From a candidate division WWE3 bacterium UBA1379 (lineage in GTDB: Bacteria; Patescibacteriota; WWE3; UBA101185; UBA10185): a DNA stretch of 64,000 nt. Shown here in pieces: positions 4,500 through 64,000 of the stretch (its first letter is position 1; every line of letters begins with the position of its first letter). The stretch spans positions 111,844-175,843 of the forward strand of contig DBRB01000003.1 of assembly GCA_002305475.1 (NCBI GenBank). Direction: 5' to 3'. The notes beneath the pieces were generated by a model. It saw only the letters and a list, made by a program, of their open reading frames with translations. It did no database searches and was not told the DNA's origin. Position numbers and translations under genes: made by a program.

Positions 4500-4547
4500 A
4501 GTACAGTCAGTTTACGCTCAAAAACGTATTTGTAAAAATTGACTAGT

Positions 4548-5185: not shown

Positions 5186-5227
5186 GTTAAACTCCTTTCT
5201 TTTTGGAGAGGCTGATATAATAAGTAT

Positions 5228-7917: not shown

Positions 7918-7974
7918 CTAGATAAATTCTATGCCCATGGATTAGTTTGAGTCAACAAGTTTAAGAAATTATTT

Positions 7975-28331: not shown

Positions 28332-29344
28332 TTATTATTAATTACTGTGGGCTGTCCGTAATTTTCAATATAAACAGGTATCATTTCCTTTTCAATCATT
28401 CTAACTTTTTTACTATCAGTATTTTTCTCAAAGGAATATACTCCAATCACTCCCCTTTTTGTTTCTTCGGACCACATTTGATCGAAGACAAAATTACCGT
28501 GTGAATATTTGATATAAACATCCCGATAATATTCTTCTGATTGTTCCCAATGCGGATGATTGCCTATTATCAGATCTGCTCCGTTTTCTACAGCCAGACG
28601 CGCCAAATAGATCTGTTGAGCATTCGATTGGTTAGTATACTCTATACCCCAATGGAACGAAGCAACTACCAGATCAGCATTTTTATCTGCTTCCGATACC
28701 AATTTGGTAATTATACTTGGATCAGCAGGAGCTATCCCTTTTGGAGAGCTGCCTACTTCATTGAAACCTAAAAAAGCGATTTTAATTCCGTTTCTTTCTA
28801 TATATGTAGGTTGTTCTACACCTGTATACAAAATACCGTAAGAAGTGAGGATTTTTTTAGTTTCCTCTATTCCCTCAAGACCGTAGTTGCCTATATGATT
28901 ATTGGCTAGATTTGCCACGTCAATTCCTGCATAAACCAAACCTTCTGCGTTTTTTGCTTCTCCGCAGAATTTAAATCCTTCCACAGTAACTGGACAATTT
29001 TTTATCAACGGAGATTCAAGATTAATAAGAGTGATATCAGCACTGATGAGGATATCCTTTGTATAAAGAAATGGCCAATTGGGATTGCTGTTTTTTTGAA
29101 TTTGATAATTGACTGATCTAGATAAACCAACATCACCTGTAGCGATAATTTTTATTCTGTTGTTTTCTTTATTCTGCGAAGTACTGTTTTCATTACTGGG
29201 ATTTCTCTGAATCAGTAATGTAATATCTTGTTGTGTCAGCAAATAAAGAAATAGAAGAAAAGCAAGAATTGAACTGATGGACAGAATGAACAGTAATAGT
29301 TTTCTCATAACTTGATTATGCCATAAAAAACGGGACATTAGCAT
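28328..29344 (-). CDS. CapA/PGA_cap family metallophosphatase-like protein (poly-gamma-glutamate capsule synthesis-type), membrane anchored
   Basis: It carries the motifs IIATGDVGLSR, LANNHIGNYG, SFHWGIEY and GNHPHWEQ. The N-terminus is a TM anchor. Confidence 0.75.
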   Translation of the reverse strand: MLMSRFLWHNQVMRKLLLFILSISSILAFLLFLYLLTQQDITLLIQRNPSNENSTSQNKENNRIKIIATGDVGLSRSVNYQIQKNSNPNWPFLYTKDILISADITLINLESPLIKNCPVTVEGFKFCGEAKNAEGLVYAGIDVANLANNHIGNYGLEGIEETKKILTSYGILYTGVEQPTYIERNGIKIAFLGFNEVGSSPKGIAPADPSIITKLVSEADKNADLVVASFHWGIEYTNQSNAQQIYLARLAVENGADLIIGNHPHWEQSEEYYRDVYIKYSHGNFVFDQMWSEETKRGVIGVYSFEKNTDSKKVRMIEKEMIPVYIENYGQPTVINNN

Positions 29345-36564: not shown

Positions 36565-36567
36565 TAT

Positions 36568-38148: not shown

Positions 38149-38154
38149 GAATAT

Positions 38155-42711: not shown

Positions 42712-45066
42712 CTACATCGCACCCATCTGTGTGCTGAGTTTTGCGAATTCAATAAACAGAAGTGTGAATATTACGGCAATAATTATCGGAGTCATTATTG
42801 ATAGATAATTTCTCTTTCCGGGCTGATAGGCCTTTAGAGTTAGTGAATTTGAAACCACGGATATTGAACTTAAAGCCATGGCAAGTCCTGCAAGTTCAGG
42901 TTTTAATACCAGACCAAAATCCGAAAAGACTCTGGCGGCAATCGGAATACCGATAATATTATAGAAAAGAGCAAAGAACATATTCTGTCTAATTTTTCCT
43001 ACTGTTGCTTTTGATAAATCTATAGCTGTTGAGACATCTCTTAAATCATTTTTGATAATGACAATACCTCCGGTTTCCATCGCTACATCAGTCCCCGAAC
43101 CCATGGCAATACCAAGATCTGCTTGTGCCAGTGCTGGAGCGTCATTGATACCATCACCCACCATTGCCACTTTATATCCCTTTTTCTGGAGCATCTTTAC
43201 TTCGTTGGCTTTCTCTTCAGGTAGAACTTCAGCCAAGACATGATCTATCCCTGCCTGTTTGGCTATAGCATCTGCCGTCTTTTTATTGTCACCCGTGATC
43301 ATATAGACTTTGATACCTAGTTTTTTTAGGTTTTTTATTGCTTCGTATGATGTATCCTTGATAGTATCCGCTACTGCTACCGCACCAAGTAAGGTATCTA
43401 CGGTAGACAGAATCATAGCTGTTTTCCCCTGTTCCTCAAGTTTTGATAGAGGTTCATTAATATCCTGAAGCGATAGCTTAAGCTCTTCAGATATTAATTT
43501 TCTATTTCCCAAATAATATTTCGTATCTCTGATATTTCCTGAAACCCCGTGACCTGGTATTACTTTAAAGGACTCCGTTGCAGGCAGATTTATAGATTTT
43601 GTTTTTGCATGTGAGTAAATAGCTTCCGCGAGAGGGTGTTCGGAATGTTTTTCCAGACCTGCTGCAATACTTAGAATTTCATCTTTTGTGTAATCGGTGA
43701 ATGAAATGACATCAGTAACTTCAGGTTTACCTTTAGTAATGGTGCCGGTTTTATCAAAAATAATTGTGTTTATTTTTAAAGCACTTTCCAATGGTTCCCC
43801 TCCTTTAATGAGGATACCGTTTTCTGCTCCCTTGCCGGTTCCCACCATCAGAGACGTCGGGGTGGCAAGACCCAAAGCACATGGACAGGCAATAACAATT
43901 ACTGAGGTGAAAGCCATTAATGAGTATGATAAGGATGAATTAAAAATGAAGAACCATGCGATAAATGTTAAAGCTGCAATAAATAAAACGCTAGGTACAA
44001 ATACTGCGGATATTTTATCGGCAAACTCCTGGATAGGTGCTTTTGAACCCTGAGCTTCTTCTACCAGTCTTATAATCTGTGCCAGAGTTGTTTCCTGACC
44101 GATTCGGACAGCTTGGTATTCAAAACTTCCCGTTTTATTAATGGTACCTCCGATTACCTGATCACCTTCAAATTTTTCTACAGGAAGACTTTCACCTGTG
44201 ATCATAGATTCATCTACGCCTGAGCTACCTTTGATAATTATTCCATCTACCGGGATTTTTTCACCCGGACGAACCACTATGTTATCCCCTTTTACTACCT
44301 GATCAATCGGGATATCCATTGTTTCTTCTCCCCTGATCACTCTGGCTGTTTTTGCATGAAGCCCCATCAATTTTTTGATTGCATCCGAGGTTCTGCCTTT
44401 TGCTTTAGATTCCAGCCACTTTCCTAGAAGAACGAAAGTAATTAAAAAAGCAGATGTTTCAAAATATATTTCAGTTACTTTTTCGCCTTTTATACCTGCT
44501 ATGGAACCGGTATTTATATAGTGAATAATTAAATTTGCCAGGCTGTAAAAATAGGCTACTGATGTGCCGATGGCTATCAGACTATCCATATTAAACGTCT
44601 TCATCTTCAGAGCGGACCACATTCCTTTATAAAATCCTTTGCCGATTATAAACTGGACGGGAGTAGCAAGAATAAAGGAAATGAATGCAGCATAAGGAAG
44701 GATCTCATTCCGCCCCCAAAGACCGGTGAAGAAATCGTAAAGCATGAAATATAGCATCGGTAAACTTAAGAGTAGTCCAAATAAAAATTTACTTAAGTAC
44801 CCTGCTTCCTGTTTCTTCTTGTTTTGTGTGGTGGTGTCAGTAGTGCCGCCGATTACTGCTTCTTTAGCTTTATATCCGGCGCTTTCTACGGCATTAATCA
44901 AATCCTTTACATCTACTGTTTCTTCTACTACTACTCCTGCTTTTTCGGAAGAGAAATTAACATTGGCAGACTGAACACCACCAACTTTATTCAGTGATTT
45001 TTCAATTAAATTTGCACAGGATGCACAGTGCATACCTTCAATATTAAGATTAACTTTCTTAGACAT
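42712..45066 (-). CDS. copA: copper-translocating P1B-type ATPase
   Basis: It has an N-terminal HMA domain ([15 protein letters not shown]), the TM metal-binding CPC motif ([11 protein letters not shown]), [17 protein letters not shown], and 8 TM helices. Confidence 0.92.
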
Positions 45067-45074
45067 CTTATTTT

Positions 45075-46589
45075 TTATTGGACTGTAAGTGTTCCTCTGG
45101 GAACACCCATCGCACAGGTAATTTGATACTTTCCTTTTTTAGTAGGAGTAAATTCCATTACAACCGTTTTTCCTTTTCGGAATACTTCATATTTATTTAC
45201 CAGACCGGGAAGGGCAAGGCTTCCCATGCATCCGTATCCATCATCTTTTGCTTCCACTTCCATACGTACCGGTTTTCCTACCTCGACTGTAAAGGACGCC
45301 GGACGCATATCATCTCTTGCGGTATATACTGCTTTAAGAATTTGAACAACACCTTGATTTTCCGATGCACCGTTAGGATAATTATTGCTGTTAGGCTTTG
45401 CACTGGTGCATAAACTTGTTCCGTATTTCTCTTCATAAGCTTTTGCAACTTCAGGGTCCATATCTGTACTGCAGTTTGTACTTGTACCTTCTGCGGAGGC
45501 GATAGAATTACTTAAATTTACTCCGGTAAGATTAAGTCCGTTTTGAATATTGTAAAAAGAAAACATTATCACTAAAAGACCTACAAACTTAAACAGTGGT
45601 TTGGTAAATGAACCTTTTGACCAGGAAGTCAATCCTCCGATTCCGAGAAGCCCCGGTGTCGTACCTAAAGCAAAGACTGACATTGTAATAGCTCCTGTAA
45701 CTAAACTTCCGCTGGACATGGCAAACAACTGCATGACCTGTGTAAAGCCGCAAGGCAGAAAGAAGGTTAACCCGCCTGCTATCAATGCCCCGCTATGCGA
45801 ATACTCATTATTTCCTTTTTTGCTTATACCCAGTACATTATTTATACTCTTAGGTAATGTAAAACGGATTTTAGATAATATGGGGAATAAACCGATAGTC
45901 TGTATTCCCATCAATAGCATAACAGCTCCTACAAAGACGGTAAGGTAACCCAGCGTAGTTGTGGAAAATTGCAAGGCAGATCCAACAAACCCTAATATCC
46001 CCCCGAATAACGCAAAGAATAATACTCTTCCTAAATTAAAGTATATGTGGGGTATAAATTTTTCAGCAGGTTTTAAGTTTTTATGTTTTTCAGAAAATCT
46101 GGCGGAGACAGCAAGGACAATTCCCCCCACTAATGCCATACAAGTGGATAATCCTGCGGTCAGACCTACTAAAAATACTACCGGGATTTTTGAATAATCA
46201 CTGGATTTTGTAAATGAATAGTCTGCTACACCGGAAGAACGAAATATCAGAAAGAGGAACAGGAGAATGCCTGCTGAATAAAGCAGATGTTTATAATCAA
46301 TAATATCAGTAGAAATCCATTTTACTTCATTTTTTCCGACTGAATAACCGGCAGCGGATACTGCATCATTTATATCCCCGTCACTGATCTCTTTTGCTGA
46401 AAATATTTCTGCAGTCCCCTTCTTTTCACTGATGATTACATTTTTAATTCCCGAAATTTTTTTTAGTTCGTCTTCAATTACAATTTCACATGAACGACAG
46501 TGCATGCCTTTTATGGGTATTGTTTTCCTTATGTTATTGGTCATATTGTTATGATAGATAACAGATATTAGAAAGTTATTAACGGGCAA
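45075..46589 (-). CDS. three-part fusion: an HMA metal-binding domain, a polytopic permease (TauE/CcdA-like, with conserved Cys in TM helices) and a C-terminal cupredoxin-like domain
   Basis: The N-terminus [17 protein letters not shown] is an HMA CxxC domain. The central part has about 8 TM helices with [11 protein letters not shown] and FFLPCGFTQ. The C-terminus [26 protein letters not shown]...[19 protein letters not shown] is a cupredoxin-like beta-sandwich. The start may be the Met at 46544. Confidence 0.55.
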
Positions 46590-47889
46590 GATTGAAAATT
46601 ACTCTGAAAGTACTACCTTTTCGTTTTTCACTATGTACTTCAATTTTACCTTTATGTGCTTTGATAATGGAATATGCAATAGCCAGGCCTAATCCATAAC
46701 CGGTAATTTTTTCGCCTGAATCACTTCTATAAAAACGCGAGAATAAATTTGGAAGATCCTTTTTTTCAATGCCCATGCCGTTATCCGTGATTTCAAAAAT
46801 TGCATGTTTTTCAGTATTTTTTAAATTTATTTTAATTAACCCGCTACCGTCATTGCCGGTGAATTTTACTGCGTTGGATGCCAGATTATAAAAAACCTGA
46901 AGGAGTTTATCCCTTCTTCCAAGTGTTTTAATGCCTTTATTAATATGGCATTCGACTTTAATATTTCTGCTTCCTGCCATATAAGTAATTGTTTCTGCAA
47001 TTTCTTCAGTCAGTTTTGACAGATTAACTTTTTCAAACTGTTTTTCAACGTCTTCCGATTGAGCCCAGGCATAGTCAATCAGACTTCCCAGCCTATTAGT
47101 AAGTCTGTCGGTCTGTTGGATGGTTTGGGACAAAGCTTGTATATATTCATCCGCGTTGCGTTCTTTGGAAAGAGCTACTTCTGCACCTGTTTTAATAACT
47201 GAGAGAGGGGTTTTTACTTCATGGGCAACATCTGCAATGAATTGCCTTTCCCTGATAAAAGAGGTGTGTATTCGTTTTAATAGCTCATTAAAACTTTTAA
47301 TCAGAATTGCGGATTCTGATGAACGGGTATCCATCATAATACCATCATTCATATTTTCTGTACTGATGTCTTTCATTCTTGTAGACAATCTGATGATCGG
47401 ATTTAGAGCACCACCTGCCATAAGATATCCGGCTAATATGGAAGGTATTATTAGGAGCAGTGTTATTAACATAAGGTTGTTTTTTAGCTGATTGAGAGCG
47501 TTTACATAGTTGTCTACCGGATGACCCATAATCAACACGCTGCTAATAACTCCCCCATCAATCAGCGGATATGCAATAATTCTTAGTTCGTCATTTCCCA
47601 GTTTATAATTCCTATACTGTGGTTCTTGTTTATCAAAGACCATAGTAACGATGTCCACAAAATCTCCAGCATCCTGTTTTGTGGCAGTCATAAGCAACAT
47701 ATTAGGGAACTGTTGATGATTAGGATTTTCCGCTATTTCCATGGCATGGGTAAGAAGTGAGCGATCAGTTTCTGATATCAGGTATTTTTTTGTTGATGAA
47801 TAAAAACTTGTAAATAAAACCGCCGACAGGATAAATATGACTAATGAATACCAGAGAGTTATTTGTGTTTTGATACTGATTTTGTTCAT
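46579..47889 (-). CDS. sensor histidine kinase (HisKA + HATPase_c), 2 TM, probably metal/copper-responsive
   Basis: It has the H-box DVAHEVKTPL, the N-box NLASNAVKFT, G1 ITDNGMGIE and G2 GYGLGLAI. Confidence 0.8.
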   Translation of the reverse strand: MNKISIKTQITLWYSLVIFILSAVLFTSFYSSTKKYLISETDRSLLTHAMEIAENPNHQQFPNMLLMTATKQDAGDFVDIVTMVFDKQEPQYRNYKLGNDELRIIAYPLIDGGVISSVLIMGHPVDNYVNALNQLKNNLMLITLLLIIPSILAGYLMAGGALNPIIRLSTRMKDISTENMNDGIMMDTRSSESAILIKSFNELLKRIHTSFIRERQFIADVAHEVKTPLSVIKTGAEVALSKERNADEYIQALSQTIQQTDRLTNRLGSLIDYAWAQSEDVEKQFEKVNLSKLTEEIAETITYMAGSRNIKVECHINKGIKTLGRRDKLLQVFYNLASNAVKFTGNDGSGLIKINLKNTEKHAIFEITDNGMGIEKKDLPNLFSRFYRSDSGEKITGYGLGLAIAYSIIKAHKGKIEVHSEKRKGSTFRVIFNLAR

Positions 47890-47893
47890 ATGT

Positions 47894-48568
47894 TTAGGAA
47901 GGATCTTTCATAGAAAAACCGACACCGAATACTGTATGAATTAGTTTATTTGATTTGTCGATCTCTATCTTTTTTCTTAAAGATGCAATGATCACATCAA
48001 TAATGTTACTCATTCCCTCATAACTGTAATCCCATACATGTTCCAGAATCATGGATCTGGTTACAACCTTATTTTTATTTCTTAAAAGGTATTCTAATAC
48101 TGCAAATTCTTTTGGAGTAAGATCTATAACTTTATCTCCTGCTAAAACTTCATGCTTTTGGATATTCATTACTAGATTTCCAATTTTTAATACCGGAAGT
48201 TCTATGTTTTCCTTTCGTCTTAATAAGGCATTTATTCTGGCTTTCAGTTCTTCGAAGGAAAACGGTTTGGTTAAGTAATCATCAGCTCCTGTATTTAGAC
48301 CCAATACTTTATCTTCTGTTTGTGATCTTGCTGTCAGCATTAATATCGGGGTGCGGTTGCCCTGTGACCTGATTTCTTTACAGATAGTCAGACCGTCAAT
48401 TTTAGGAAGAGATAAATCAAGAATAATCAGGTCATACGGTTCATGCTGGGCATAGTATAACCCCTCTTCTCCATCATAAGCAGTGTCTATGGCATATCCC
48501 TGCTCACTAAGGCCTTTTTTTAAGGTACTTACTAAATTTAGTTCATCTTCAATCATTAATATTCTCAT
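47894..48568 (-). CDS. OmpR-family response regulator
   Basis: The receiver domain has MRILMIEDE...LIILDLSLP...TARSQTEDK. A winged-helix C-terminus is present. The start was taken at the Met giving MRILMIEDE. Confidence 0.85.
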   Translation of the reverse strand: MRILMIEDELNLVSTLKKGLSEQGYAIDTAYDGEEGLYYAQHEPYDLIILDLSLPKIDGLTICKEIRSQGNRTPILMLTARSQTEDKVLGLNTGADDYLTKPFSFEELKARINALLRRKENIELPVLKIGNLVMNIQKHEVLAGDKVIDLTPKEFAVLEYLLRNKNKVVTRSMILEHVWDYSYEGMSNIIDVIIASLRKKIEIDKSNKLIHTVFGVGFSMKDPS

Positions 48569-48661
48569 AGTATTTGCAGCCATCTATATATATCTCATAA
48601 AATCACCAAAATGTGAAGTGGTATTGTAGAATGATCGGATAATTTCAGGTATACTGATTAT

Positions 48662-52028: not shown

Positions 52029-52934
52029 TTAAGATTTGGGTAAACTTAGGTTTCTCTTTTTTATTAATTCAGCAGCCTTTTTAACTTTTCCCATGACCAC
52101 CAGACTACAATAAGGGTTATTCGGATTGTTTTCATAAAAATTCATGTGATAATCTTCTGCCTGATAAAACACCATATAAGGTATAACTTGGGTTACTGCC
52201 ATTATTCCGGTATTTTTTAATACTTCTATATATCTCTTGGTTTTTTGTTCCTGTTCTATAGTTGTAAATAATATTATAGAACGGTATTGTTCTCCTACAT
52301 CATTACCTTGTCTGTTTAGGGTTGTCGGATCATGAATTTCAAAAAATATTTGAAGCAGATCATCAAAAGTCACTATAACGTTGTTAAATTCTATCCGTAC
52401 TACTTCCGCATGATGAGTGTTTCCTTCGGATACATCCTCATACGAAGGATTATCTTTTGATCCTCCGGAATAACCGGATATTACACTGATAACTCCCGGA
52501 ATTAGTTTAAAGACAGCTTCAGTGCACCAGAAACATCCCCCTCCGAAATATGCAACCTCAATATTTCCTTCATTAGATTTTGGTATAAATTTGATTGATA
52601 GTGAATTGACACAATGGCGGGTATCTTTTTCCGTCATTTTTTCCCCCTCAAATACATGTCCTAAATGACCCTTGCAGTTTGAACAAATTATTTCTGTTCT
52701 TATTCCGTCAGAGTCAGGTTTTCTTACCACGGATCCGGGAAAATGTTCATCAAAACTTGGCCATCCGCATCCGGAATTAAATTTGGCTTCAGCTGAAAAC
52801 AGCGGTTGGGAACATTGTCTGCAGTAAAACACCCCATCTTTAAACATTGAATCATATTCATTCGTAAATGGATTCTCGGTTTTCTTATTTATTATCACCT
52901 GTTTTTCTTCTTTAGTAAGCGGATTTTTAATCAT
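52029..52934 (-). CDS. msrBA: bifunctional peptide-methionine sulfoxide reductase with an N-terminal MsrB and a C-terminal MsrA
   Basis: The MsrB part has the Zn site CRQC...CSNC and RTEIICSNCKGHLGHVF. The MsrA part has the active site GGGCFWC. Confidence 0.9.
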   Translation of the reverse strand: MIKNPLTKEEKQVIINKKTENPFTNEYDSMFKDGVFYCRQCSQPLFSAEAKFNSGCGWPSFDEHFPGSVVRKPDSDGIRTEIICSNCKGHLGHVFEGEKMTEKDTRHCVNSLSIKFIPKSNEGNIEVAYFGGGCFWCTEAVFKLIPGVISVISGYSGGSKDNPSYEDVSEGNTHHAEVVRIEFNNVIVTFDDLLQIFFEIHDPTTLNRQGNDVGEQYRSIILFTTIEQEQKTKRYIEVLKNTGIMAVTQVIPYMVFYQAEDYHMNFYENNPNNPYCSLVVMGKVKKAAELIKKRNLSLPKS

Positions 52935-54067
52935 AAATTATTAGGATTAACCTTAATTAATTTGTCATCATTATCTCTTGCCTGTCCTCTGCCGTCTCTG
53001 TTGCTTGTAGTCAGATAAAATTGGTTGTTGGGTCCTATCTTCAGACCTCTTAATCTTCCGAATGTATTATCAAGATGAACCGTAAATTCACTGACATTGT
53101 TGTTTTGTATACGTGCTTCATAAAGAGCAGTACCACGTAACCCGGTAAAATAGATGGATCCGTTGAAATAGACGGTAGAACCGGGGGCCCATGTGTCGGA
53201 TGCCCCAGAATGGATTACGGGAGGAATCATTCCTTCGCGGGTCTGATCTCCGCGTATAATCGGCCATCCGTAATTACCTCCCTTAGTAATCAGATTTAAT
53301 TCGTCAAATCCTGACTGGCTGCCTGACGGACCGTGTTCCGTTTCCCAGAGATTACCATTTTCGTCCCAGGTAAGACCCTGTGGATTTCTATGCCCGTATG
53401 AATATATTGCATTATTAAAGGGATTATCTTCAGGAATACTGCCGTCATCAGCAATTCTTAGGATTTTTCCATTAAGGGATGAGAGATCTTGGGCAAGATT
53501 TTGACTACCAGCATCCCCTGTAGTGATGTATAAGTAACCATCAGGAGCGAACGCCATCTTCCCCCCATCATGATTTGATGCACCTGCGATTCCATCAAGT
53601 ATCACTTCCCTATCAGTCAACCTGTTATCAGTAAGAACATATCTTTCTACTCTGTTTTCCAATCCAGTTTCAGTTCTGACGGTTAAGTATAAATATATAT
53701 ATCTATTGTTTTCAAAATCTGGATGCAGAACCATTCCTAATAGTCCACCCTCTCCTATATGAGCAACGCCATCAATTCTTTGAGAAGTTCTGGTTTCCTG
53801 ATTAATCCTTATCACATTTCCTACTCTTTCGGTAATCAGAAGATCTCCATCAGAAAGAAACACTAATTCCCATGGGATATTCAGATTATCTGCAATTACA
53901 GTTATGGGTTCATTACTTTGTGTAGAGTCATTAGCAGGATTATTAAATACCGTATCTTGGGAAGATGATTGCAAACTATCTATATCTACAGTTTCATTTC
54001 TAATTAAATATAGGGTAATTCCAATAAGTAATGCAATAGGTAAAACTATTAATAATTTATTTCTCAT
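52931..54067 (-). CDS. PQQ-dependent sugar dehydrogenase (soluble glucose/sorbosone dehydrogenase-like), secreted
   Basis: A signal peptide is present. The motifs GLLGMVLHPDF and YSYGHRNPQGLTW match the paralog at 247..1209. Confidence 0.75.
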   Translation of the reverse strand: MRNKLLIVLPIALLIGITLYLIRNETVDIDSLQSSSQDTVFNNPANDSTQSNEPITVIADNLNIPWELVFLSDGDLLITERVGNVIRINQETRTSQRIDGVAHIGEGGLLGMVLHPDFENNRYIYLYLTVRTETGLENRVERYVLTDNRLTDREVILDGIAGASNHDGGKMAFAPDGYLYITTGDAGSQNLAQDLSSLNGKILRIADDGSIPEDNPFNNAIYSYGHRNPQGLTWDENGNLWETEHGPSGSQSGFDELNLITKGGNYGWPIIRGDQTREGMIPPVIHSGASDTWAPGSTVYFNGSIYFTGLRGTALYEARIQNNNVSEFTVHLDNTFGRLRGLKIGPNNQFYLTTSNRDGRGQARDNDDKLIKVNPNNL

Positions 54068-55310: not shown

Positions 55311-56024
55311 TTAATGACCCTTTGCCTTTAGTATACTTCTTACGGATTTCCATGCGGGATAATGTCGGTCAAGTAAATTATAGAATTTTTTGCTGTGATT
55401 TAGCTCTATCAGATGACAGAATTCATGGATAATCACGTAATCAATACACTTTGGGTCATATTTAATCAGATCTTTATTTATTTTAATAATACCCCGTGCA
55501 GAACACTGTCCCCATTTATTCTTCATGGAACAAATTGATATTTCAGGCACAGACAGGCTGTATTGATTAAACTCTGAAAATATAATAAAAGCTCTCTCAC
55601 TGATTATTTTTCTAGCCTGGTTATAATACCAGTTATATAATAGATGTCTGACCAAAAGCTCATTGTCCGTATTGATACAACTAACAATCAGATTACAGTC
55701 AAAAATTTCTACCAAAGCATTATCTGATTTAACCAATTGTAGTGTGTAGTCTTTGCCTAAATATGGGTGAATTTCTCCTTGTTTAAAGAGTTTGTTATTG
55801 CTTTGTTTTTTCTTAATATACTCAAGTTTATTTCTGATCCATCTTTCTTTTTCCTTAAGTATATTGAAAATAACCTCATCACTGATGTGGTTAGGTGAAG
55901 ATACAACTATTAGATTGATGTCTTTAACCGAAATTCCGATAGTATGTTTCCTCTTAGTTCTCTTGATTTTAATGGAAGCAGTTGTGTCGTTTCCAAGTTT
56001 TATAACGGATGTTTTGTCAGTCAT
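55311..56024 (-). CDS. DUF45/YgjP-like M48-family zinc metallohydrolase
   Basis: The HExxH motif sits in DYVIIHEFCHLIELNHSKKFYNLL, which matches the YgjP signature HElcHL...NHs..Fw. Confidence 0.7.
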   Translation of the reverse strand: MTDKTSVIKLGNDTTASIKIKRTKRKHTIGISVKDINLIVVSSPNHISDEVIFNILKEKERWIRNKLEYIKKKQSNNKLFKQGEIHPYLGKDYTLQLVKSDNALVEIFDCNLIVSCINTDNELLVRHLLYNWYYNQARKIISERAFIIFSEFNQYSLSVPEISICSMKNKWGQCSARGIIKINKDLIKYDPKCIDYVIIHEFCHLIELNHSKKFYNLLDRHYPAWKSVRSILKAKGH

Positions 56025-56433
56025 TACTCATTTTATGGTACAGGTTTTTTACTAATAACGGAGTCAGAAACATAGTAATAAGAAAAAGCAGCCAAATTCT
56101 ACCTTTAAATATGTTGTAATCGTTTAATAACCTTATCCAGGAAGCTCCGTCAATAATGTGACCGAACCCAAACTCAAATATTATAGTCATTAATACCCAC
56201 AATGTGCCTATTTTTATTAATGTAAGACTGCTTAAGTCTTTAACTGTGTTATTGAGAATTAAATAACATAATAAAAAGAATGCTACTGAACCGGTTAGTG
56301 TACTAATCTGATGGGCTGTCAGTTCCCCTACATAATGCTGATAGACTAAATTTCTGATAATTCCATTAAGTATTGCTATAGGTGTGAATAACAGCCAGAT
56401 AATCAATGCTTTTTTATAAACTGTATCGAGCAT
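56017..56433 (-). CDS. small membrane protein (4 TM, hypothetical)
   Basis: The 138-aa ORF has four hydrophobic helices. Its stop overlaps the start of the DUF45 gene. Confidence 0.4.
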   Translation of the reverse strand: MLDTVYKKALIIWLLFTPIAILNGIIRNLVYQHYVGELTAHQISTLTGSVAFFLLCYLILNNTVKDLSSLTLIKIGTLWVLMTIIFEFGFGHIIDGASWIRLLNDYNIFKGRIWLLFLITMFLTPLLVKNLYHKMSND

Positions 56434-56845: not shown

Positions 56846-58060
56846 TTAATATCTGAGGATTGCCGCGAGAGGAGAATCAAGCTGTTTACCGTTCTCAACA
56901 GAGTACACCATACCCCCATTTTTTAATGTATTTATAGCCGTATAGTTAGTTAATTCAGTAATGTTATTATTACTGCCATTATTAATCCGTTCGGCTTTCA
57001 ATAGTCCGTTTTCCATTTTTATATTTACTTTCAGTTCATCCTCCGGCCTGACCAAAAGTGTGTCTACCTGTCCGTAATAGGCTTTATTTAACACTTCTTG
57101 CGAATTTCTGGAAGATTTTTCGTACTCCAGTTTCTGTAGATTTTGGGATATTTCATCATTAATATCCTGCTGTTGGATTTCTTTCATAACTTCCCAAGCT
57201 CTTTTTCCAAGAAGATCAGGATGCAGACTGCGTTTATCAAGTCTCACATATTGATTCAGAATACCTTTAATTTTTGATAGTTTAGAAAATATTGAGTATG
57301 TTTTAATATCCGAAGCTATTAATAGTGGGGTATTTTGTGAAGATATTTTTTGGGATGCCGCGTTATCCACACTAGTGCAAAATCTAATAAGGTTGTCATT
57401 TTTTGCATCAATATATGCCCCGTGTCCGTGATAGATCATTGCACCTGATAAACCTGGTCCGGTTTTTGATGACGTTTTATTCTGGATTGACTTTTCAGGA
57501 TCATCAAATTCCATTATTTCATCCATATTAATAGGCATATCAGGAACATTAATTTCAAAAAGTTTTGCTTCCCTTCCCCTGTATAAAGATACCTGTTTTT
57601 GAGAGAGCAACAACAAATAGTAGTCATAATTGCGGGATAGGATATTAATTAAAGGTTTAATATAGAAAGCACAGTCTTGATGAATCTGATTACCCATTTC
57701 ATCGGATACTGTAAAAACACATTCCTGATTCTTCTCCATCATAATTACCAATGTATCTTGAACGTGTTTCCAGAATTGTTCATCATCAATAAGATGGGCG
57801 AGAAATTTTCTATGATAATCATCAACATCATTTGCGTAATTCTTCAGTTGAATTTTTGCTTCTTCATTCTGGTCCCATACCGGACTTGTCTGAAGATATA
57901 TTGTGGTTGAATCAATGTTGTTTTCGGAAAAATTTTTAGCATATTGAAAAATGAAATCTTTGATATCTGCAGAAGTACTGGTTAATTCCATATATAAAAT
58001 ATGCTCTTGTAATTTATGGGATATATTAAAAGAATGTTTGCGGTTTATCACAGCCCACAT
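56846..58060 (-). CDS. eRF1/Pelota-like (bacterial baeRF-type) release-factor-fold protein
   Basis: The C-terminus GGMVYSVENGKQLDSPLAAILRY matches the eRF1 domain-3 signature (GGIGGILRY). The central glycine-rich segment GPGLSGAMIYHGHGAY is compatible with an RNase-H-like domain 2. No GGQ is present. Confidence 0.45.
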   Translation of the reverse strand: MWAVINRKHSFNISHKLQEHILYMELTSTSADIKDFIFQYAKNFSENNIDSTTIYLQTSPVWDQNEEAKIQLKNYANDVDDYHRKFLAHLIDDEQFWKHVQDTLVIMMEKNQECVFTVSDEMGNQIHQDCAFYIKPLINILSRNYDYYLLLLSQKQVSLYRGREAKLFEINVPDMPINMDEIMEFDDPEKSIQNKTSSKTGPGLSGAMIYHGHGAYIDAKNDNLIRFCTSVDNAASQKISSQNTPLLIASDIKTYSIFSKLSKIKGILNQYVRLDKRSLHPDLLGKRAWEVMKEIQQQDINDEISQNLQKLEYEKSSRNSQEVLNKAYYGQVDTLLVRPEDELKVNIKMENGLLKAERINNGSNNNITELTNYTAINTLKNGGMVYSVENGKQLDSPLAAILRY

Positions 58061-58398: not shown

Positions 58399-58848
58399 AT
58401 GAAAAAAATTAGCTGGAATCACATCAATTTAGGTGGGGATATCGAATTAATAAACCGTATAGCTGCTATTTTTATCAAGTTGATGAAAGACAAAAATGTA
58501 GAATGCAAATTTGTCTGCGCAAGGATTAATTGTAAAGAAGAGTTTGGTGGTAGTTTGACAATCAAAATAAAACCGCCTTGGAGTGCTTCTGAATTTTATA
58601 GTAATCTAAATATTTTTGTATGTAGAGAGAACAACGGATTTAATTTACTGGATATTAAAGAGTTCGAAGGAAACATACTTTGGCCTAATATTGTCGAAAC
58701 AAATGCAATTTCATTTAAGTTAGGTCAGAGGACGCAGGAATACAGATTACGTTTAGTTGATTTGTTGCAACTGATACAACTTATATCAGCGCATGACAGT
58801 ACAAATACTATGAGAGTGAAAGAAATAATCATGAGGTTGAAATTATAG
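58399..58848 (+). CDS. hypothetical protein
   Basis: The 149-aa ORF is followed by a clean terminator. No motif was recognised. Confidence 0.4.
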   Translation: MKKISWNHINLGGDIELINRIAAIFIKLMKDKNVECKFVCARINCKEEFGGSLTIKIKPPWSASEFYSNLNIFVCRENNGFNLLDIKEFEGNILWPNIVETNAISFKLGQRTQEYRLRLVDLLQLIQLISAHDSTNTMRVKEIIMRLKL

Positions 58849-59233: not shown

Positions 59234-60301
59234 ATGTTTAATACTAAACTGGCATATTTTTTGCAAATAGGTGCCCTATTAGTATTTATAGTGATCACAA
59301 TAATTAGTAGATTTGGCGATAAAATACCTAAGTCTGATTATTCTTTTGTTTTAATGGAAAACCCTGAAATCTCAGGATGGGTCGCGTGGTGGAAAGAGGA
59401 TGAGGGGATGGATTTAATTAACAGACACAACAGCCAGATATCGTCAATATCGCCTTTCTGCTTTATCGTGAATGACAGTTTAGAAGTGGAAAATAAATGC
59501 AAAAAACTTCTCAATAAAGATGTGGTGCTACAATATAAGGACGCAGGTATAAAAGTAATTCCTACCTTAGGCTCAGATATTCGTTATGAACAATGGACTC
59601 CTCTACTTACCAATGATACTGGTATTAAACAATTAGCCGAATACCTATCTACGCAAATTGCGGATATTGGAGCTGACGGTATAGATTTGGACATTGAGGG
59701 TATAGAAGAATCAGATAGGGATAGGTTTACTAGAATGGTAGAAATATTTAATGACGTATTTTCCAGTCGCGGGCAGCATTTATCTGTTACTATCCATGCC
59801 CAGGACGGTAAGAATTTCTACAAAATAACAAAAGGTCAGGATATTAGAGCAATTGGAAGATTGGCGGATGAAGTGAGAATTATGGCGTATGACCAACACG
59901 GTACTTTTTCGGGTCCTGGTCCTATCACCTCACTAAACTGGCTGAAGGATACGGTTAACTATAATCTATCTCTAATACCAAGAGATAAATTAGTGATAGG
60001 TCTTCCATCGTATGGATATATCTGGGAACAAACTGGATATTCTAAAGGATATTTGTATAGTGAATTTATGGACTATCTGAATAAAAGCACAGAAAAATAT
60101 TATGTTGATCGGGATTCTTCATCAAAAGAGCTAGTATATAAAACCTCATTGTATGAGGGATGGTTATCCGATGCCTTTTCTGTTATTGCCAAGATTAATA
60201 CTGTCAGATTCCTTGGGGTGAACAGATTCGTAATTTGGAATCTTAGCGGTATTGATGAACGCCTGTTTGATCATAATTGGACTTTTCCTGATAATGGATG
60301 A
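59234..60301 (+). CDS. membrane-anchored GH18-like (chitinase-fold) protein
   Basis: An N-terminal TM is present. The catalytic-type motif DGIDLDIEGIE is close to the GH18 motif DGxDxDWE but has Ile in place of Trp. Confidence 0.5.
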   Translation: MFNTKLAYFLQIGALLVFIVITIISRFGDKIPKSDYSFVLMENPEISGWVAWWKEDEGMDLINRHNSQISSISPFCFIVNDSLEVENKCKKLLNKDVVLQYKDAGIKVIPTLGSDIRYEQWTPLLTNDTGIKQLAEYLSTQIADIGADGIDLDIEGIEESDRDRFTRMVEIFNDVFSSRGQHLSVTIHAQDGKNFYKITKGQDIRAIGRLADEVRIMAYDQHGTFSGPGPITSLNWLKDTVNYNLSLIPRDKLVIGLPSYGYIWEQTGYSKGYLYSEFMDYLNKSTEKYYVDRDSSSKELVYKTSLYEGWLSDAFSVIAKINTVRFLGVNRFVIWNLSGIDERLFDHNWTFPDNG

Positions 60302-60391
60302 TCCCAGTTTATTTAAAAGACTAAGTATGATCATAACTAAATGAAACAGTATGGATATACTTCCTAACTGGCTGTTTAACATTGCCATATT

Positions 60392-61462
60392 TTAATCTCC
60401 TTTATTAATCTTATATCTAGTGGTATCCCATGAGTAATTTTTCTCATAGCTCAGATAGCCTTGGAAAAAACTTCTGATAAAAACTAAGCTAGACAAGAAA
60501 CGTAAGAAGTAAAAATGAAATATGTAAGGAAACAGTTTAAAGCTTCTGATTCTTATGGAAACCCAAAGTAGACTTGGAATAAAAAATAATCCCAGATCCA
60601 GTAGTATCGGATATTTTAGAACATGAATATAGTTAAAAACTAGAACTGAAGGAAAAAAGAAGATCAGCATAAATGCTAGTATGCTGTTGTATAACCCTTC
60701 TATAGCCATCAAAGTCACTTCAAAATCCAGAGTCTGACCGCCCCAAGGAATATTATGTTTCTTAACCGCCTGCCAGAAACCTGTATACCAACGGGTTATT
60801 TGTTTTAAAAAATCTTTAAGGTTGTTGGGGTCCTGAGTATATACTACCGCTTGTGGTACAAATACCATGTGATTATACCCTCTTCTGTGCAGTTGAAAGG
60901 TAAAGTCCATATCTTCGGTCAGGGTGCCGGTAGGAAATACGTTATTCCTCAGAATTTTGCTTCTGTAGACAGTAGCACATCCCGGCACAACTATGATTGC
61001 AGACATAAATGCTTGTGCCTGTTTATGTATGAAGTGTGAAATCTGGTATTCCCAGATCCGGTATTTTTCCACCCAGCTGTTTCCCCTACCCTCAACTCTC
61101 CCTACAGCAATCTGTACCTTTTTGTTTTTTTCCATAATTGGAATAATGTATTTAAGAAATTTCTTATCCGGTCTGGTGTCCGCATCCATTAGCAAGATAT
61201 AATGATAATTGTGTGCAATATTAAAATGAGCAATTCCCTGGTTTAATGCTGAAGCTTTGCCGGAGTTGGGCAGAATTAAAACATTGTCGGTGTATCTTAA
61301 TGCGATTTTTGACGTTTTGTCTTTAGACCCGTCATCAATCACATAGATATGTTCTTTTTTAACGATATTTTTAACTGCTTTTAGAGTATCAGATAGCACC
61401 AGTGCTTCATTATATGCTGGTATTATTACGGCTGTTTTATCGTCTACGGATTTTCTTGCCAT
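60392..61462 (-). CDS. processive GT2 beta-glycosyltransferase (PgaC/IcaA/NodC/chitin-synthase-like) with C-terminal TMs
   Basis: The motifs AVIIPAYNE, VIDDGSKD, LMDADT (DxD), TEDMD and QITRWYTGFWQ (QxxRW) are present, followed by 3 to 4 C-terminal TMs. Confidence 0.8.
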   Translation of the reverse strand: MARKSVDDKTAVIIPAYNEALVLSDTLKAVKNIVKKEHIYVIDDGSKDKTSKIALRYTDNVLILPNSGKASALNQGIAHFNIAHNYHYILLMDADTRPDKKFLKYIIPIMEKNKKVQIAVGRVEGRGNSWVEKYRIWEYQISHFIHKQAQAFMSAIIVVPGCATVYRSKILRNNVFPTGTLTEDMDFTFQLHRRGYNHMVFVPQAVVYTQDPNNLKDFLKQITRWYTGFWQAVKKHNIPWGGQTLDFEVTLMAIEGLYNSILAFMLIFFFPSVLVFNYIHVLKYPILLDLGLFFIPSLLWVSIRIRSFKLFPYIFHFYFLRFLSSLVFIRSFFQGYLSYEKNYSWDTTRYKINKGD

Positions 61463-62337
61463 ATGATGTCCTCGAAGATCTGACTGGGCGTAACAACCGC
61501 AAGTCCAGAATTATTTATTTCCTCTATCAGCTGCCGAAAGGTTGATTCCTCAATACCATACTGTTCGTCCTTATCATTATTGATTTCGGCTCCTATCTGA
61601 TGAAATACAATTATGAGCCAATAACGGTTTTGTTTTGATTCATCAATCCACGACTTGATTTCATCAAAGGTTGTATTGATCTGAATATTTTTCACTTTCA
61701 AGTGATAAGAATCCAGATTATTTAAATCATTAAAACCTGGTTCAACCGTCCTATATGCAGAAAACTGCCTTGTAGCTTCCTCTTCGAGATCCGTACTGTT
61801 AACACCACAAGGACTAACAAAGACATCTGATGCCAGATCTTGATTCCACATTTCCATAGTTGCATATCTTAGTTCGTTTCTGATTTTGGTGCGACTCCAA
61901 TCTTGCATGGTACAGTCATGAAAGCGGCTGTGATTGGTTATTTCCCATCCTAGCTCCTGAAGAATTTTTACCTGTGCCCAGTTCATATAATTTGGTTTGC
62001 CGACTGCTTGTGTAGGTACTGCCAGTGTTCCGACATATCCGTATTCGTTTAGGATTTGTGCACCTTTGAGATATTGAGAAATCCAGGCGTCATCAAACCA
62101 GAAGGTGATATATCCAGAATCCGAAGGAGGAAGGGGCGGGTAGTCTATATCACCAACAGGAGCAGCATTAATTACACTGTTATCTGCAGATGCGATCTGA
62201 GGATTGTTGGTGATAAAAAGCAAAGTTCGGACATAGTTGAATGCCAACCATGCAATAAGACACGGAACTATCAACCAGAATAGAAAAGTATGATCTGATT
62301 TATTATTATTTCTTTTCATAAATACTGAAATCTCCAA
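61444..62337 (-). CDS. polysaccharide deacetylase (CE4 / NodB-homology), membrane anchored
   Basis: It has an N-terminal TM. CE4 motif 1 is present as TFWFDDAW, and motif 2 (H[ST]xxH) as TNHSRFHD. It overlaps the GT2 start by 19 nt. Confidence 0.65.
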   Translation of the reverse strand: MEISVFMKRNNNKSDHTFLFWLIVPCLIAWLAFNYVRTLLFITNNPQIASADNSVINAAPVGDIDYPPLPPSDSGYITFWFDDAWISQYLKGAQILNEYGYVGTLAVPTQAVGKPNYMNWAQVKILQELGWEITNHSRFHDCTMQDWSRTKIRNELRYATMEMWNQDLASDVFVSPCGVNSTDLEEEATRQFSAYRTVEPGFNDLNNLDSYHLKVKNIQINTTFDEIKSWIDESKQNRYWLIIVFHQIGAEINNDKDEQYGIEESTFRQLIEEINNSGLAVVTPSQIFEDIIWQENP

Positions 62338-63745
62338 CTTGATATACTAGGTTGTACTGCTTCTCCACTTCCGGTAAAAGAATCTCTCTTAATGATTCTT
62401 TTTTTGGTGTATCGTCTGCAGTATTAAGCTCGATATATTGGAAGTACTTATCTTTGACCGCCTGCAGATAGCCATTTTCATCTGTGAATCCGGAATAATT
62501 TATCCAGTCAAAAGTTGTGATATTCACGGGATGATTTTTCTCATATAAGGCAAGCATCGTGGATGCACCTGCCTGAGTAAGTATTTTATCCCCCTGCTTG
62601 GAATTTTCAGAAAGAAATGAATCGATCATTGTGGTGTCAGGCCATGAGTGTTCCAGCTGTTTAAAAGTTATGATCGAACTGACAAGAAAATAGAGAATTC
62701 CGTAATATGCCGTGGCTTTTAGGAAAATAGAAGGAAAGGATTGAGAGTGGATTATATAAGACAGACCATAACCAATAATCGGAGAAAGAAAAACGACGGA
62801 AAAGTAGAGATGTTTATCCAGTGTAGTAAATCGATGGTAATAAAGATGAAAAGCCGGAAGTACTGATGCAAGAAACACAAGCATAGAAGCAGCATAGAAT
62901 TTCTTTTTAAGGATTAAAATAATTGCTGATATTAACCCGAATATCAGAACCAGTTTCATGTCATTCCATATTGTTTCAATAATTTCAGTTAGTGGATATA
63001 TTTCATAATCTATTTGTCCTGATACATAAGCCTTAAGGCTTTCCATATCAAAGACTAAGTAGACGGCAAATCCGGATAGCAAAGGTATTAAAAAATATTT
63101 AAACCAGATGTGAAGATTTTGTTTTTGGTACTTTCTTGTAAATATATAGGAAGCTACGACAATAAACGGAAAATAGATAGCAGTAACAATTTTGCAGAAA
63201 TATGAAAGAAGTAATCCTAAAGCTGATAAGAAATAATGTTTTCCCGTGCTTGTTTTTCCTGCTTTTATCATTTCGTTTATGGAAAAAATCAACAGAAAAA
63301 AGCTCGGAATATCATATGTAGCAAGACGGCTTGAGTATATGCCCACCCCGGAAAATCCTGCGATAATTACTGCTAGATACGCTGCAGTTTGATTAATCTT
63401 TTTTGAGAAAAGATTAAGGTGTCTGGTTAATATAAAAACCTCTTCTACTATCAACAGACTAAACATAATATTTAATAGCCTAGAGGCAGTGATTCCTCCG
63501 GTTTGAAAAACCAGGGATGTCATGATGGGATATACAAGCGGGGATCCTGCCATCCAAGACCGGGCTCCGAACGTGACAAAGTCATTTTCTAACAATCCCA
63601 TCTTGCCTACTACAATATATATGGCTTCATCGTTAAACGGAGAGTTATAATTCAGGTTGAATATCCGTAGGAAAGTTATTACGGCAATAAGCATATAAAA
63701 CAATATTAACGGGTGTTTTTTATTATAAATTTCAAAATTTATCAC
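62306..63745 (-). CDS. GT-C-like membrane glycosyltransferase (ArnT/PMT_2-like)
   Basis: The motif YNSPFNDEAIYIVVGKMG follows TM1. The 479-aa protein has more than 10 TMs. Its 3' end overlaps the CE4 gene by 32 nt. Confidence 0.5.
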   Translation of the reverse strand: MINFEIYNKKHPLILFYMLIAVITFLRIFNLNYNSPFNDEAIYIVVGKMGLLENDFVTFGARSWMAGSPLVYPIMTSLVFQTGGITASRLLNIMFSLLIVEEVFILTRHLNLFSKKINQTAAYLAVIIAGFSGVGIYSSRLATYDIPSFFLLIFSINEMIKAGKTSTGKHYFLSALGLLLSYFCKIVTAIYFPFIVVASYIFTRKYQKQNLHIWFKYFLIPLLSGFAVYLVFDMESLKAYVSGQIDYEIYPLTEIIETIWNDMKLVLIFGLISAIILILKKKFYAASMLVFLASVLPAFHLYYHRFTTLDKHLYFSVVFLSPIIGYGLSYIIHSQSFPSIFLKATAYYGILYFLVSSIITFKQLEHSWPDTTMIDSFLSENSKQGDKILTQAGASTMLALYEKNHPVNITTFDWINYSGFTDENGYLQAVKDKYFQYIELNTADDTPKKESLREILLPEVEKQYNLVYQVGDFSIYEKK

Positions 63746-63878
63746 TAAAATCGATATCTCTTTAACTATTTATATAGGTCTAAAGTATACGTAGAAAAGT
63801 ATTAGAAGCGTTAGTATTATGTTAAAGGAATAATATTTAAAATAAGTTATTCTATTAATTATTATAATATGAATGAGA

Positions 63879-64000
63879 CTACCTGTTTCTCTCGTTTTTA
63901 ACAAACAACCAGGTACCGATGGTGATGAATATAATTGTAAGTATTGCAATAATTAACAGATTAATAAAGTAATTATGAAGTACTATCTTGTTGTATTCCT
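63879..64000 (-). CDS. 3' end of a membrane-protein gene entering from the right edge (partial)
   Basis: The reverse strand has an open frame ...EYNKIVLHNYFINLLIIAILTIIFITIGTWLFVKNERNR, with a TAG stop at 63879..63881. Confidence 0.25.
   Translation of the reverse strand, partial: EYNKIVLHNYFINLLIIAILTIIFITIGTWLFVKNERNR

Follow-up and report, generated by a model that had tools for sequence, protein, structure and literature searches.

What does a compact cluster of two glycosyltransferases, a deacetylase and a glycoside hydrolase build at the surface of a bacterium with a reduced metabolism? The question is raised by a locus near the end of a 64,000-nucleotide stretch of contig DBRB01000003.1 (positions 111,844 to 175,843, forward strand; hereafter the window) from the candidate division WWE3 bacterium UBA1379, a member of the Patescibacteria. 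These organisms represent a large fraction of bacterial diversity and have an attached lifestyle on other cells, and their envelope chemistry is almost unknown. An earlier note, made from the nucleotide sequence alone, proposed that the cluster serves the synthesis, partial de-N-acetylation and trimming of a polymer based on N-acetylglucosamine (GlcNAc). This is the best-supported reading of the locus in our analysis, and we give slightly better than even credence to the view that its four genes form a synthase-dependent module for making and processing a GlcNAc-based glycan of the cell surface. The four genes together occupy about 4.5 kb of the window, whose G+C content is about 35%, and are laid out as follows (TM, transmembrane; GH18, CE4, GT2 and GT-C denote glycoside hydrolase family 18, carbohydrate esterase family 4, glycosyltransferase family 2 and the GT-C glycosyltransferase fold).

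59234..60301, plus strand: GH18-like hydrolase, predicted to be membrane-anchored or secreted, 355 aa; putative cognate hydrolase of the module
60392..61462, minus strand: GT2, synthase-type (processive-family), 356 aa
61444..62337, minus strand: CE4 deacetylase, N-terminally anchored and predicted to be extracytoplasmic, 297 aa from the TTG at 62337 or 291 aa from the likelier ATG at 62319
62306..63745, minus strand: GT-C fold glycosyltransferase, gene 1 of the operon, 479 aa from a GTG start; about 11 TM helices and a small C-terminal domain predicted to be extracytoplasmic
63746..63880, minus strand: AT-rich intergenic stretch of 135 nt 5' of the GT-C gene; tentative candidate for the promoter region of the GT-C/CE4/GT2 operon

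All four open reading frames (ORFs) lie at the coordinates given in the earlier note, and its four family calls are upheld by profile or structure. The tight coupling that it described is likewise borne out, with one qualification. The overlap of 19 nt between the CE4 and GT2 genes is solid, and a GAGGA sequence lies 6 nt 5' of the GT2 ATG. The overlap of 32 nt between the GT-C and CE4 genes depends on the TTG start of the latter and shrinks to 14 nt from the ATG at 62319. A GGAG precedes this ATG by 12 nt, and the gene call in Logan, where the contig recurs in SRR5321211, begins there (291 aa). For the GT-C protein the 479-aa start is favoured over a 462-aa call, because the shorter form would cut the first TM helix of the structural model. 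Two promoter-like matches are found on the minus strand 5' of the GT-C gene (63858-63830 and 63825-63798); such sites are no commoner around the locus than in shuffled sequence, so the promoter assignment is a weak one. No intrinsic terminator was found in the gap between the convergent GH18 and GT2 genes.

Is this arrangement more than a chance neighbourhood? Species-representative genomes were scanned with an alignment of the GT2, which yielded 22 loci, and the ORFs of these loci were searched with the window proteins. Eighteen loci, one on the contig of the window and the rest from 17 other genomes of Patescibacteria, all show the order GT-C, CE4, GT2, with the GT-C gene immediately 5' of the CE4 gene in every case. 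The GH18 gene adjoins the GT2 gene in 17 of the 18 and is present wherever the contig continues. It had been described as a mere convergent neighbour, which holds for the window's clade (L001, L003, L004, L005, L007, L008 and L017 in our numbering of the loci) but not in general: in 11 of the 17 complete loci it is a co-directional fourth operon gene, immediately 3' of the GT2 gene (L006, L009-L016, L022 and L023), against 6 in which it is convergent. All-against-all clustering of the ORFs of at least 90 aa in the 18 loci demonstrates that only these four families recur and that the flanks are unrelated. A search of the same ORFs for a fifth conserved gene, such as a flippase, a small activator or a polyprenyl-phosphate sugar synthase, returned nothing beyond antisense shadow ORFs within the GT2 gene. 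Because the same four genes alone recur in 18 loci with unrelated flanks, the module is more than a product of chance. It is self-contained and restricted mainly to Patescibacteria (the candidate phyla radiation, CPR), the relatives of the window cassette belonging to WWE3, Woesebacteria, Shapirobacteria and Gottesmanbacteria, and, to judge by identical lengths of the longest contig, orthologues of both GT2 and GT-C seem to appear together on no fewer than 29 additional contigs.

More distant GT2 relatives (31-34% identity) in three loci of Saccharimonadia (L019, L020 and L021) have no orthologous GT-C in the fetched flanks, and a large CE4 of 460-590 aa lies on each side of the GT2. Both CE4 proteins of L019 match the carbohydrate-binding module (CBM) family CBM_4_9, one of them under the Pfam gathering score. 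Similarly, in Ktedonobacter sp. SOSP1-85 (L024) the GT2 gene is next to a large CE4 gene, with no orthologous GT-C in the fetched flanks. As the distant GT2 enzymes pair with CBM-fused or large CE4 enzymes without an orthologous GT-C in these flanks, the GT2-CE4 core would act on a polysaccharide and appears to be independent of the GT-C. A GH18 gene is also located about 5 kb away in L019.

A few loci show peculiarities of their own. Complete four-gene copies stand on contigs labelled as a Bathyarchaeia archaeon (L022, DATKWK010000035.1, 394 kb) and as uncultured Gammaproteobacteria (L006, L010 and L018); these labels are probably due to mis-binning or mislabelling, and horizontal transfer may lie behind such copies. 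In L008, from a metagenome-assembled genome of the Patescibacteria, the GT-C (3861-5354) and the GH18 (7402-8495, with masked X residues) are each split into two ORFs, through an error (of assembly, or a frameshift) or else through decay of this copy of the module. Mostly just beyond the end of the window, a pair of ABC_tran and ABC2_membrane genes is located directly 5' of the GT-C gene and shares its strand, 185 nt away (L001, 5855-7584), the 3' end of the ABC-2 permease gene occupying approximately 63880-64000 of the window on the minus strand. The pair resembles exporters of the TagGH or Wzm-Wzt type. We considered it as the exporter of the module and rejected it, as it is not kept beside the cassette in other loci.

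What kind of enzyme is the GT2? It matches Glycos_transf_2 and Glyco_tranf_2_3 of Pfam, each at about 1e-24, and scores 44.5 bits with Chitin_synth_2 (gathering score 27), a match that covers only profile positions 199-288 of 527. Against curated models it reaches 106 bits with PgaC_IcaA (TIGR03937), below the cutoff of 422.3 and with an alignment that begins at profile position 45, 51.8 bits with NodC (TIGR04242; cutoff 550) and 21.9 bits with the ArnC model NF007986 (cutoff 529). Over the 22 GT2 orthologues the best curated E-values are 1e-30 for PgaC_IcaA, 1.5e-22 for NodC and 5e-16 for CelA, so that by sequence the family is slightly nearer to PgaC/IcaA than to NodC. Both of these top curated families are GlcNAc polymerases, and the profile searches did not place the GT2 in a non-hexosamine family. 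The motifs named in the earlier note are present as D93-A-D95, T182-E-D184 and Q221-I-T-R-W225. Invariant in the 22 orthologues are D93, D95, T182-E183-D184, Q221, R224, W225 and P239-W240, while D44 is nearly invariant (at least 90%).

The layout of the GT2 consists of an N-terminal cytoplasmic GT-A domain, an interface helix with the QxxRW motif and three C-terminal membrane helices, which comprise residues 244-275, 279-305 and 311-336 in the AlphaFold2 (AF2) model (pLDDT 89.3). An N-terminal TM helix is absent in all 22 orthologues, and the C-terminal helices bear the invariant charges D246, E248, D289 and R321. Searched against the Protein Data Bank (PDB), the family profile matches Escherichia coli BcsA at 1.6e-17 across residues 7-307, i.e. 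into the membrane part, and hyaluronan synthase (HAS) at 1.8e-13, whereas ArnC, GtrB and DPMS match only over the first ~100 residues (~6-120), at 1e-4 to 1e-5. The best Foldseek match of the model is Chlorella virus HAS (TMq 0.76, rmsd 4.1 A), followed by XlHAS1 from Xenopus, BcsA and chitin synthases (Chs); the model is also near the minimal PcManGT fold 6yv7 (TMq 0.58, TMt 0.59). Profiles and model thus assign the GT2 to the synthase-type enzymes of the BcsA/HAS/Chs superfamily. Its three helices might be supplemented by a partner, or by oligomerisation, to give a complete glycan channel.

The second enzyme of the core, the CE4 protein, scores 32.3 bits with Polysacc_deac_1 (gathering score 23.1). 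The two motifs quoted in the earlier note are found as W80-F-D-D-A-W and N-H136-S-R-F-H140, and D82, D83, H136, H140, R196 and H246 are invariant in 17 orthologues. From the canonical motifs we take D82 to be the base and D83, H136 and H140 to be metal ligands, with R196 and H246 belonging to the catalytic set. The metal-binding and catalytic residues are therefore intact, and the protein does not fall into a family that lacks the metal triad. Its profile matches the polysaccharide deacetylase 6dq3 (1.1e-11), BpsB/PgaB (8.4e-9) and IcaB (1.3e-6) in the PDB, and the region of motifs 1 and 2 aligns to CE4 enzymes of known structure. The module CE4 has the canonical order with the His motif C-terminal, whereas in the alignment with 6dq3 this motif meets the N-terminus of the 6dq3 chain. 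PdaA and PgdA are also among the profile matches, PgaB/IcaB-type enzymes score better, and ArnD was not matched in the PDB search. Fifteen of the 17 orthologues have a single N-terminal TM helix, and in most of them its N-terminal flank is the basic one. The sole over-long orthologue (P0189) was checked for a Rosetta-stone fusion between GT-C and CE4, and none was found.

The conserved presence of a hydrolase raises the question of what it might cut. The GH18 protein matches Glyco_hydro_18 at E = 2.5e-21 (77.1 bits, gathering score 29.6) and, also above the Pfam gathering score, TIM-barrel_EndoS at 1.2e-7. Its best PDB relatives are 5jh8, an uncharacterised 'probable chitinase' (1.8e-21), and Bacillus subtilis YdhD (3cz8, 2.7e-20); the cortex-lytic enzymes SleL/YaaH (~1e-8) and then classical chitinases follow. 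The catalytic motif DxxDxDxE, which had been quoted as DGIDLDIEG, is intact as D148-G-I-D151-L-D153-I-E155, and the protein retains DxDxE, the Tyr-Asp of MxYD and the -1 subsite Trp. At least 90% of 17 orthologues conserve G149, D151, E155, M217, Y219, D220 and W335, while D153 is found in 16 of the 17. The earlier note had attached weight to a missing Trp in this motif. Across the orthologues, many of which read DxDWE, the catalytic Glu is preceded by W, F, L or I, so this is normal variation and uninformative. A hydrophobic N-terminal anchor is detected by hydropathy in 16 of the 17, and a Pfam search found no LysM or other peptidoglycan-binding domain in the GH18 or the other module proteins. 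To our knowledge, based on the CAZy classification, GH18 enzymes are known to act only on β-1,4 linkages of GlcNAc, as in chitin, chitobiose cores and peptidoglycan. Since the GH18 partner is conserved, a β-1,4-linked, chitin- or chitosan-like product would be favoured over the β-1,6-linked poly-N-acetylglucosamine (PNAG).

The 479-aa protein has no match of its own in Pfam or NCBIfam, and a profile of 33 sequences found none among the PDB sequences. However, PMT_2 or PMT (PF13231/PF02366) is carried by 40 of 99 orthologues. The roughly 99 orthologues at E < 1e-50 form a discrete group, beyond which the score falls from 193 to 81 bits for the next PMT_2 proteins. The AF2 model (pLDDT 91.8, pTM 0.90) comprises about 11 TM helices and a small C-terminal α/β domain, and in Foldseek it matches STT3, ArnT, ALG12, PglB and AglB with a probability of 1.00 and TMq of 0.54-0.63. 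Invariant in the 33 sequences are D39-E40, directly after TM1 in the first outer loop, and R89, D145, K185, H300, R305, K311 and H312. Based on conservation and model, the protein is a bona fide GT-C and probably active. As the catalytic D-E motif is retained, the GT-C implies a donor linked to a lipid phosphate. The suggestion that it stands in place of an outer-membrane porin is not supported, as an enzyme of this kind is no functional equivalent of a porin.

The window contains a second cassette in which a synthase-type GT2 is found with a hydrolase and GT-C proteins.

33710..39672, plus strand: four genes in a row for a GH8 hydrolase (BcsZ-like), a 533-aa BcsA-like GT2 and two PMT_2 GT-C proteins, assigned by family profiles

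The GH8 scores 166.6 bits with the BcsZ model and the BcsA-like GT2 296 bits with CelA. The order GH8, BcsA-like GT2, GT-C is kept in all three other Patescibacteria contigs that were checked (L025, 4788-9127; L026, 3716-9159; L027, 4790-9056), two of which carry a small extra GT2 upstream. BLASTP of the 479-aa GT-C against the GT-C proteins of this cassette showed no similarity beyond the D-E-A motif after TM1. Because the parallel GH8 cassette is conserved elsewhere, the combination of a synthase-type GT2, a product-matched hydrolase and a GT-C is therefore a recurrent patescibacterial design, of which the four-gene module is the N-acetylhexosamine (HexNAc) version with a deacetylase added.

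How, then, might the four proteins work together? We infer the sugar and its linkage, the substrates, the chain length, the topology and the role of the GT-C from the folds, the catalytic residues, the gene content and the conserved synteny described above. The GT2, with its active site predicted on the cytoplasmic side, would extend a glycan by polymerising HexNAc, most probably GlcNAc drawn from UDP-GlcNAc, and the glycan would cross the membrane through or beside the three charge-bearing C-terminal helices. The active sites of CE4, GH18 and GT-C are predicted from sequence to be extracytoplasmic. Anchored outside, the CE4 would strip some of the N-acetyl groups, while the anchored GH18 would cut or trim the chain at GlcNAc residues, in a role like that of BcsZ in cellulose systems or of the hydrolase domain of PgaB in PNAG systems. 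At the outer face the GT-C, using a donor linked to polyprenyl phosphate, may decorate the glycan or couple it to its final acceptor.

Several observations weigh against this proposal. All specificity is assigned by homology, and the curated scores are far under their cutoffs (106 versus 422 bits for PgaC_IcaA). The GT2 has three TM helices, fewer than any solved autonomous polysaccharide channel (six or more), and its product might instead be short or lipid-linked, in the manner of the minimal PcManGT fold 6yv7. Conservation of the GT-C is no less strict than that of the other proteins, and its gene is first in the operon, yet the enzyme is given a vague role and an external donor. The nearest characterised GH18 relatives (SleL/YaaH) act on the peptidoglycan cortex and not on chitin. 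Finally, the topology of the CE4 and GH18 proteins was derived from a simple analysis of hydropathy and the positive-inside rule, with no dedicated predictor.

Different readings of the same gene set deserve to be weighed against these data. In the ArnC-ArnD-ArnT pathway 4-amino-4-deoxy-L-arabinose is added to lipid A, Bordetella LgmA-LgmC-LgmB add glucosamine (GlcN) to lipid A, and mycobacterial PpgS with Rv3779 adds galactosamine to arabinogalactan. In a pathway of this type the GT2 would load HexNAc on polyprenyl phosphate, the CE4 would de-N-acetylate it, and the GT-C would move the cationic hexosamine to a wall polymer, a lipid or a protein. GT2, deacetylase and GT-C are the exact enzyme set of these pathways, and lgmA, lgmB and lgmC are needed for the GlcN modification of lipid A (PMC4993483). 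The GT-C of the module, with D39-E40 and its conserved basic residues, needs a lipid-phosphate sugar donor and the module offers no other candidate for its synthase; the TM helices of the GT2 are few, and in 21 of its 22 orthologues the N-terminal part matches PpgS weakly (best E = 1.4e-10). We nevertheless regard this scheme as unlikely. TED and QxxRW, which bind the sugar acceptor in synthases, are invariant, and the alignment and superposition of the GT2 on BcsA, HAS and Chs extend through its membrane region, while ArnC, GtrB and DPMS match its generic first ~100 residues only. Moreover, the predicted outward orientation and the PgaB/IcaB-like character of the CE4 contrast with ArnD, which works at the cytoplasmic face; the ORFs of at least 90 aa in the 18 loci include no conserved flippase (ArnE/F, LgmD); the strictly conserved GH18 is left without a role; and the distant relatives hold GT2 and CE4, with a CBM in Saccharimonadia, without an orthologous GT-C in the fetched flanks. 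A donor made inside the module is also provided if the GT2 builds a short β-1,4-GlcNAc oligomer on polyprenyl phosphate and moves it outward, where CE4 and GH18 would edit it before an oligosaccharyltransferase (OST)- or AglB-like GT-C transfers it en bloc to protein or wall. This would account for exactly four co-travelling genes. It agrees with STT3-type oligosaccharyltransferases at the top of the Foldseek list of the GT-C, with a GT2 of the same size as the 'minimal cellulose-synthase-like' PcManGT and too few helices for a classical channel, and with the EndoS-type TIM barrel matched by the GH18 above the gathering score. However, direct support for a lipid acceptor is lacking, and Foldseek does not tell STT3, ArnT and ALG12 apart (all at TMq 0.61-0.63). 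In the same genome, the cassette with the BcsA-like GT2 pairs GT-C proteins with a full-size synthase that needs no hand-over, and the GT2-CE4 pairs of Saccharimonadia and Ktedonobacter have no orthologous GT-C nearby. We judge such a lipid-linked chito-oligosaccharide to be improbable to much the same degree.

The relatives of the GH18 suggest peptidoglycan remodelling as a further role: the GH18 would be a YdhD/SleL-like N-acetylglucosaminidase and the CE4 a PgdA/PdaA-like enzyme, with the two glycosyltransferases adding an unrelated wall decoration. The closest characterised GH18 enzymes, SleL and YaaH (YdhD being putative), do act on spore-cortex peptidoglycan, and PdaA and PgdA are found among the profile matches of the CE4, where they are outscored by the PgaB/IcaB-type deacetylases. 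Given that this role would not explain why, in 17 to 18 loci, a synthase-type GT2 is strictly coupled in an operon with the hydrolase and the deacetylase, that the Pfam search detected no peptidoglycan-binding domain, and that the hydrolase of the parallel GH8/BcsA-like cassette is matched to the product of its synthase, we find peptidoglycan remodelling quite improbable. Least of all do we expect the GT2 to be a glycolipid enzyme, which would place GlcNAc on a membrane lipid of the diacylglycerol or hopanoid kind for the CE4 to turn the product into a GlcN-lipid. GT2 enzymes with a QxxRW motif and few TM helices do include lipid glycosyltransferases, and monoglucosyldiacylglycerol (MGlcDAG) synthases and HpnI carry (Q/R)xxRW. 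In addition, 14 of the 22 GT2 orthologues show a weak match to HpnB (best E = 2.4e-11). However, PgaC, NodC and CelA are among the best matches of the GT2 while models of HpnI and of ceramide or diacylglycerol glucosyltransferases are not, GH18 and GT-C are unexplained, and the CBM-fused CE4 partners of the distant relatives point to a polysaccharide substrate.

The remainder of the window holds further genes of note. Between 9184 and 29344, paralogues of the PMT_2-type GT-C start at 12123, 15823, 17298, 20877, 23870 and 25980; the one at 17298 encodes 1186 aa with the PMT_2 region at residues 761-897, and ORFs of similar size without matches start at 9184 and 13573. After these genes come a small GT2 that looks soluble (27423..28331), which is a candidate polyprenyl-phosphate sugar or glycan glycosyltransferase, and a PGA_cap (CapA-like) gene (28328..29344). 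On the minus strand, 56846..58060 encodes a 404-aa protein that matches several families of bacterial archaeo-eukaryotic release-factor-like (baeRF) proteins, family 7 at 9.6e-30; beside it are small ORFs without family matches (58399..58848 and 56017..56433) and a YgjP-like metallopeptidase (55311..56024). A metal-handling cluster (42712..48583, minus strand) comprises a P-type ATPase of 784 aa with an HMA domain, an unusual HMA/DsbD_2/cupredoxin fusion of 504 aa, a histidine kinase and an OmpR-type response regulator. Two paralogues of glucose/sorbosone dehydrogenase (GSDH) are found at 247..1209 and 52931..54067, both on the minus strand, in this genome of reduced metabolism. Genes for a sortase and MsrA/B lie nearby (L001, 18529-20643).

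If the module synthesises and trims a GlcNAc-based glycan, as we favour, the product is predicted to be partly deacetylated and hence cationic, and would be a candidate adhesion or wall component. A chitin- or chitosan-like polymer would be unusual for bacteria. The pairing of synthase-type GT2 and GT-C proteins for two polymers suggests an unrecognised step of synthase-dependent polysaccharide assembly in monoderm-like cells. More speculatively, and with a probability that we put well below even, many Patescibacteria (Microgenomates, WWE3/Katanobacteria, some Saccharimonadales and Parcubacteria) may make a true chitin- or chitosan-like surface polymer of β-1,4-linked GlcNAc and GlcN, by means of a minimal three-helix synthase obligatorily paired with a dedicated GT-C, whose part would be to complete the route of export, or else to decorate the chain or couple it covalently. 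Were this the case, an assembly mode with synthase, cognate hydrolase and GT-C, serving a cellulose-like glucan as well, would be undescribed in other bacteria, and the polymer could determine host attachment in these episymbionts. The size of about 4.5 kb makes the module suitable for heterologous reconstitution, which matters as most Patescibacteria are uncultured.

How does the module relate to systems that are already known? With the Arn and Lgm pathways it shares the family triad of GT2, deacylase (of CE4 fold in ArnD) and GT-C. In contrast to them, its GT2 is of the synthase type and not of the ArnC/GtrB type, its CE4 is predicted to face outward, a flippase is absent and the GH18 is integral; moreover, we know of no evidence that Patescibacteria make lipid A. 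Streptomyces MatAB, with a PNAG-type synthase and a fused deacetylase, and CslA-GlxA-CslZ are monoderm synthase-dependent systems that couple a GT2 to a deacetylase or a cognate hydrolase. They have no detectable orthology to the module and no GT-C, and the domains of MatB are fused while the module genes are separate and translationally coupled. Cellulose operons (BcsA-BcsZ) and the patescibacterial GH8 cassette share with the module a synthase-type GT2 and a product-matched hydrolase and, in Patescibacteria, one or two GT-C proteins beside the synthase. They differ in the glucan polymer and the absence of a deacetylase, and the GT2 of the GH8 cassette is full-size (533 aa) with N-terminal TM helices; BcsB is absent from both the four-gene module and the GH8 cassette.

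Closer likeness is found among GlcNAc polymer systems. The eukaryotic toolkit for chitin and chitosan (chitin synthase, CE4 chitin deacetylase, GH18 chitinase) and the rhizobial NodC-NodB pair have in common with the module three enzyme families that act on β-1,4-GlcNAc chains. This is in line with the Chitin_synth_2 match, partial but above the gathering score, with NodC as second-best curated family, with HAS and Chs as best structural matches and with the intact GH18 motif. On the other hand, chitin synthases are much larger than the GT2, which falls far short of the NodC cutoff (51.8 versus 550 bits), NodB is cytoplasmic while the module CE4 is predicted outside, NodA is missing, and the module is a bacterial operon with a GT-C in addition. 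We know of no chitin-like polymer that has been shown in any Patescibacterium. With pgaABCD and icaADBC, whose gene order the earlier note had seen mirrored here, the module shares a membrane GT2 with the D, DxD, TED and QxxRW motifs and extracytoplasmic CE4 de-N-acetylase and hydrolase activities in one operon, PgaC_IcaA being the best curated model of the GT2 and PgaB/BpsB and IcaB being among the best structural relatives of the CE4. Membership of the pga/ica family is nevertheless not supported: the GT2 scores under the TIGR03937 cutoff (106 versus 422.3 bits) and is without N-terminal TM helices, and neither a PgaD/IcaD-like small subunit nor a PgaA porin is conserved among the ORFs of at least 90 aa screened in the 18 loci. 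In addition, the hydrolase is a separate GH18 whereas PgaB has a GH153 domain, and the GT-C is obligatory. Full-text literature searches and recent reviews and studies contained no description of such a cassette in Patescibacteria, the mentions of PgaC in them referring to other phyla. In summary, the module functions like a pga/ica or chitin-toolkit system, yet stands outside PgaC/IcaA by score, N-terminal helices and small partner; what sets it apart as a variant is that a GT-C is obligatory, that the GH18 is a separate protein, that the synthase is minimal with three helices and that the module is restricted mainly to Patescibacteria.

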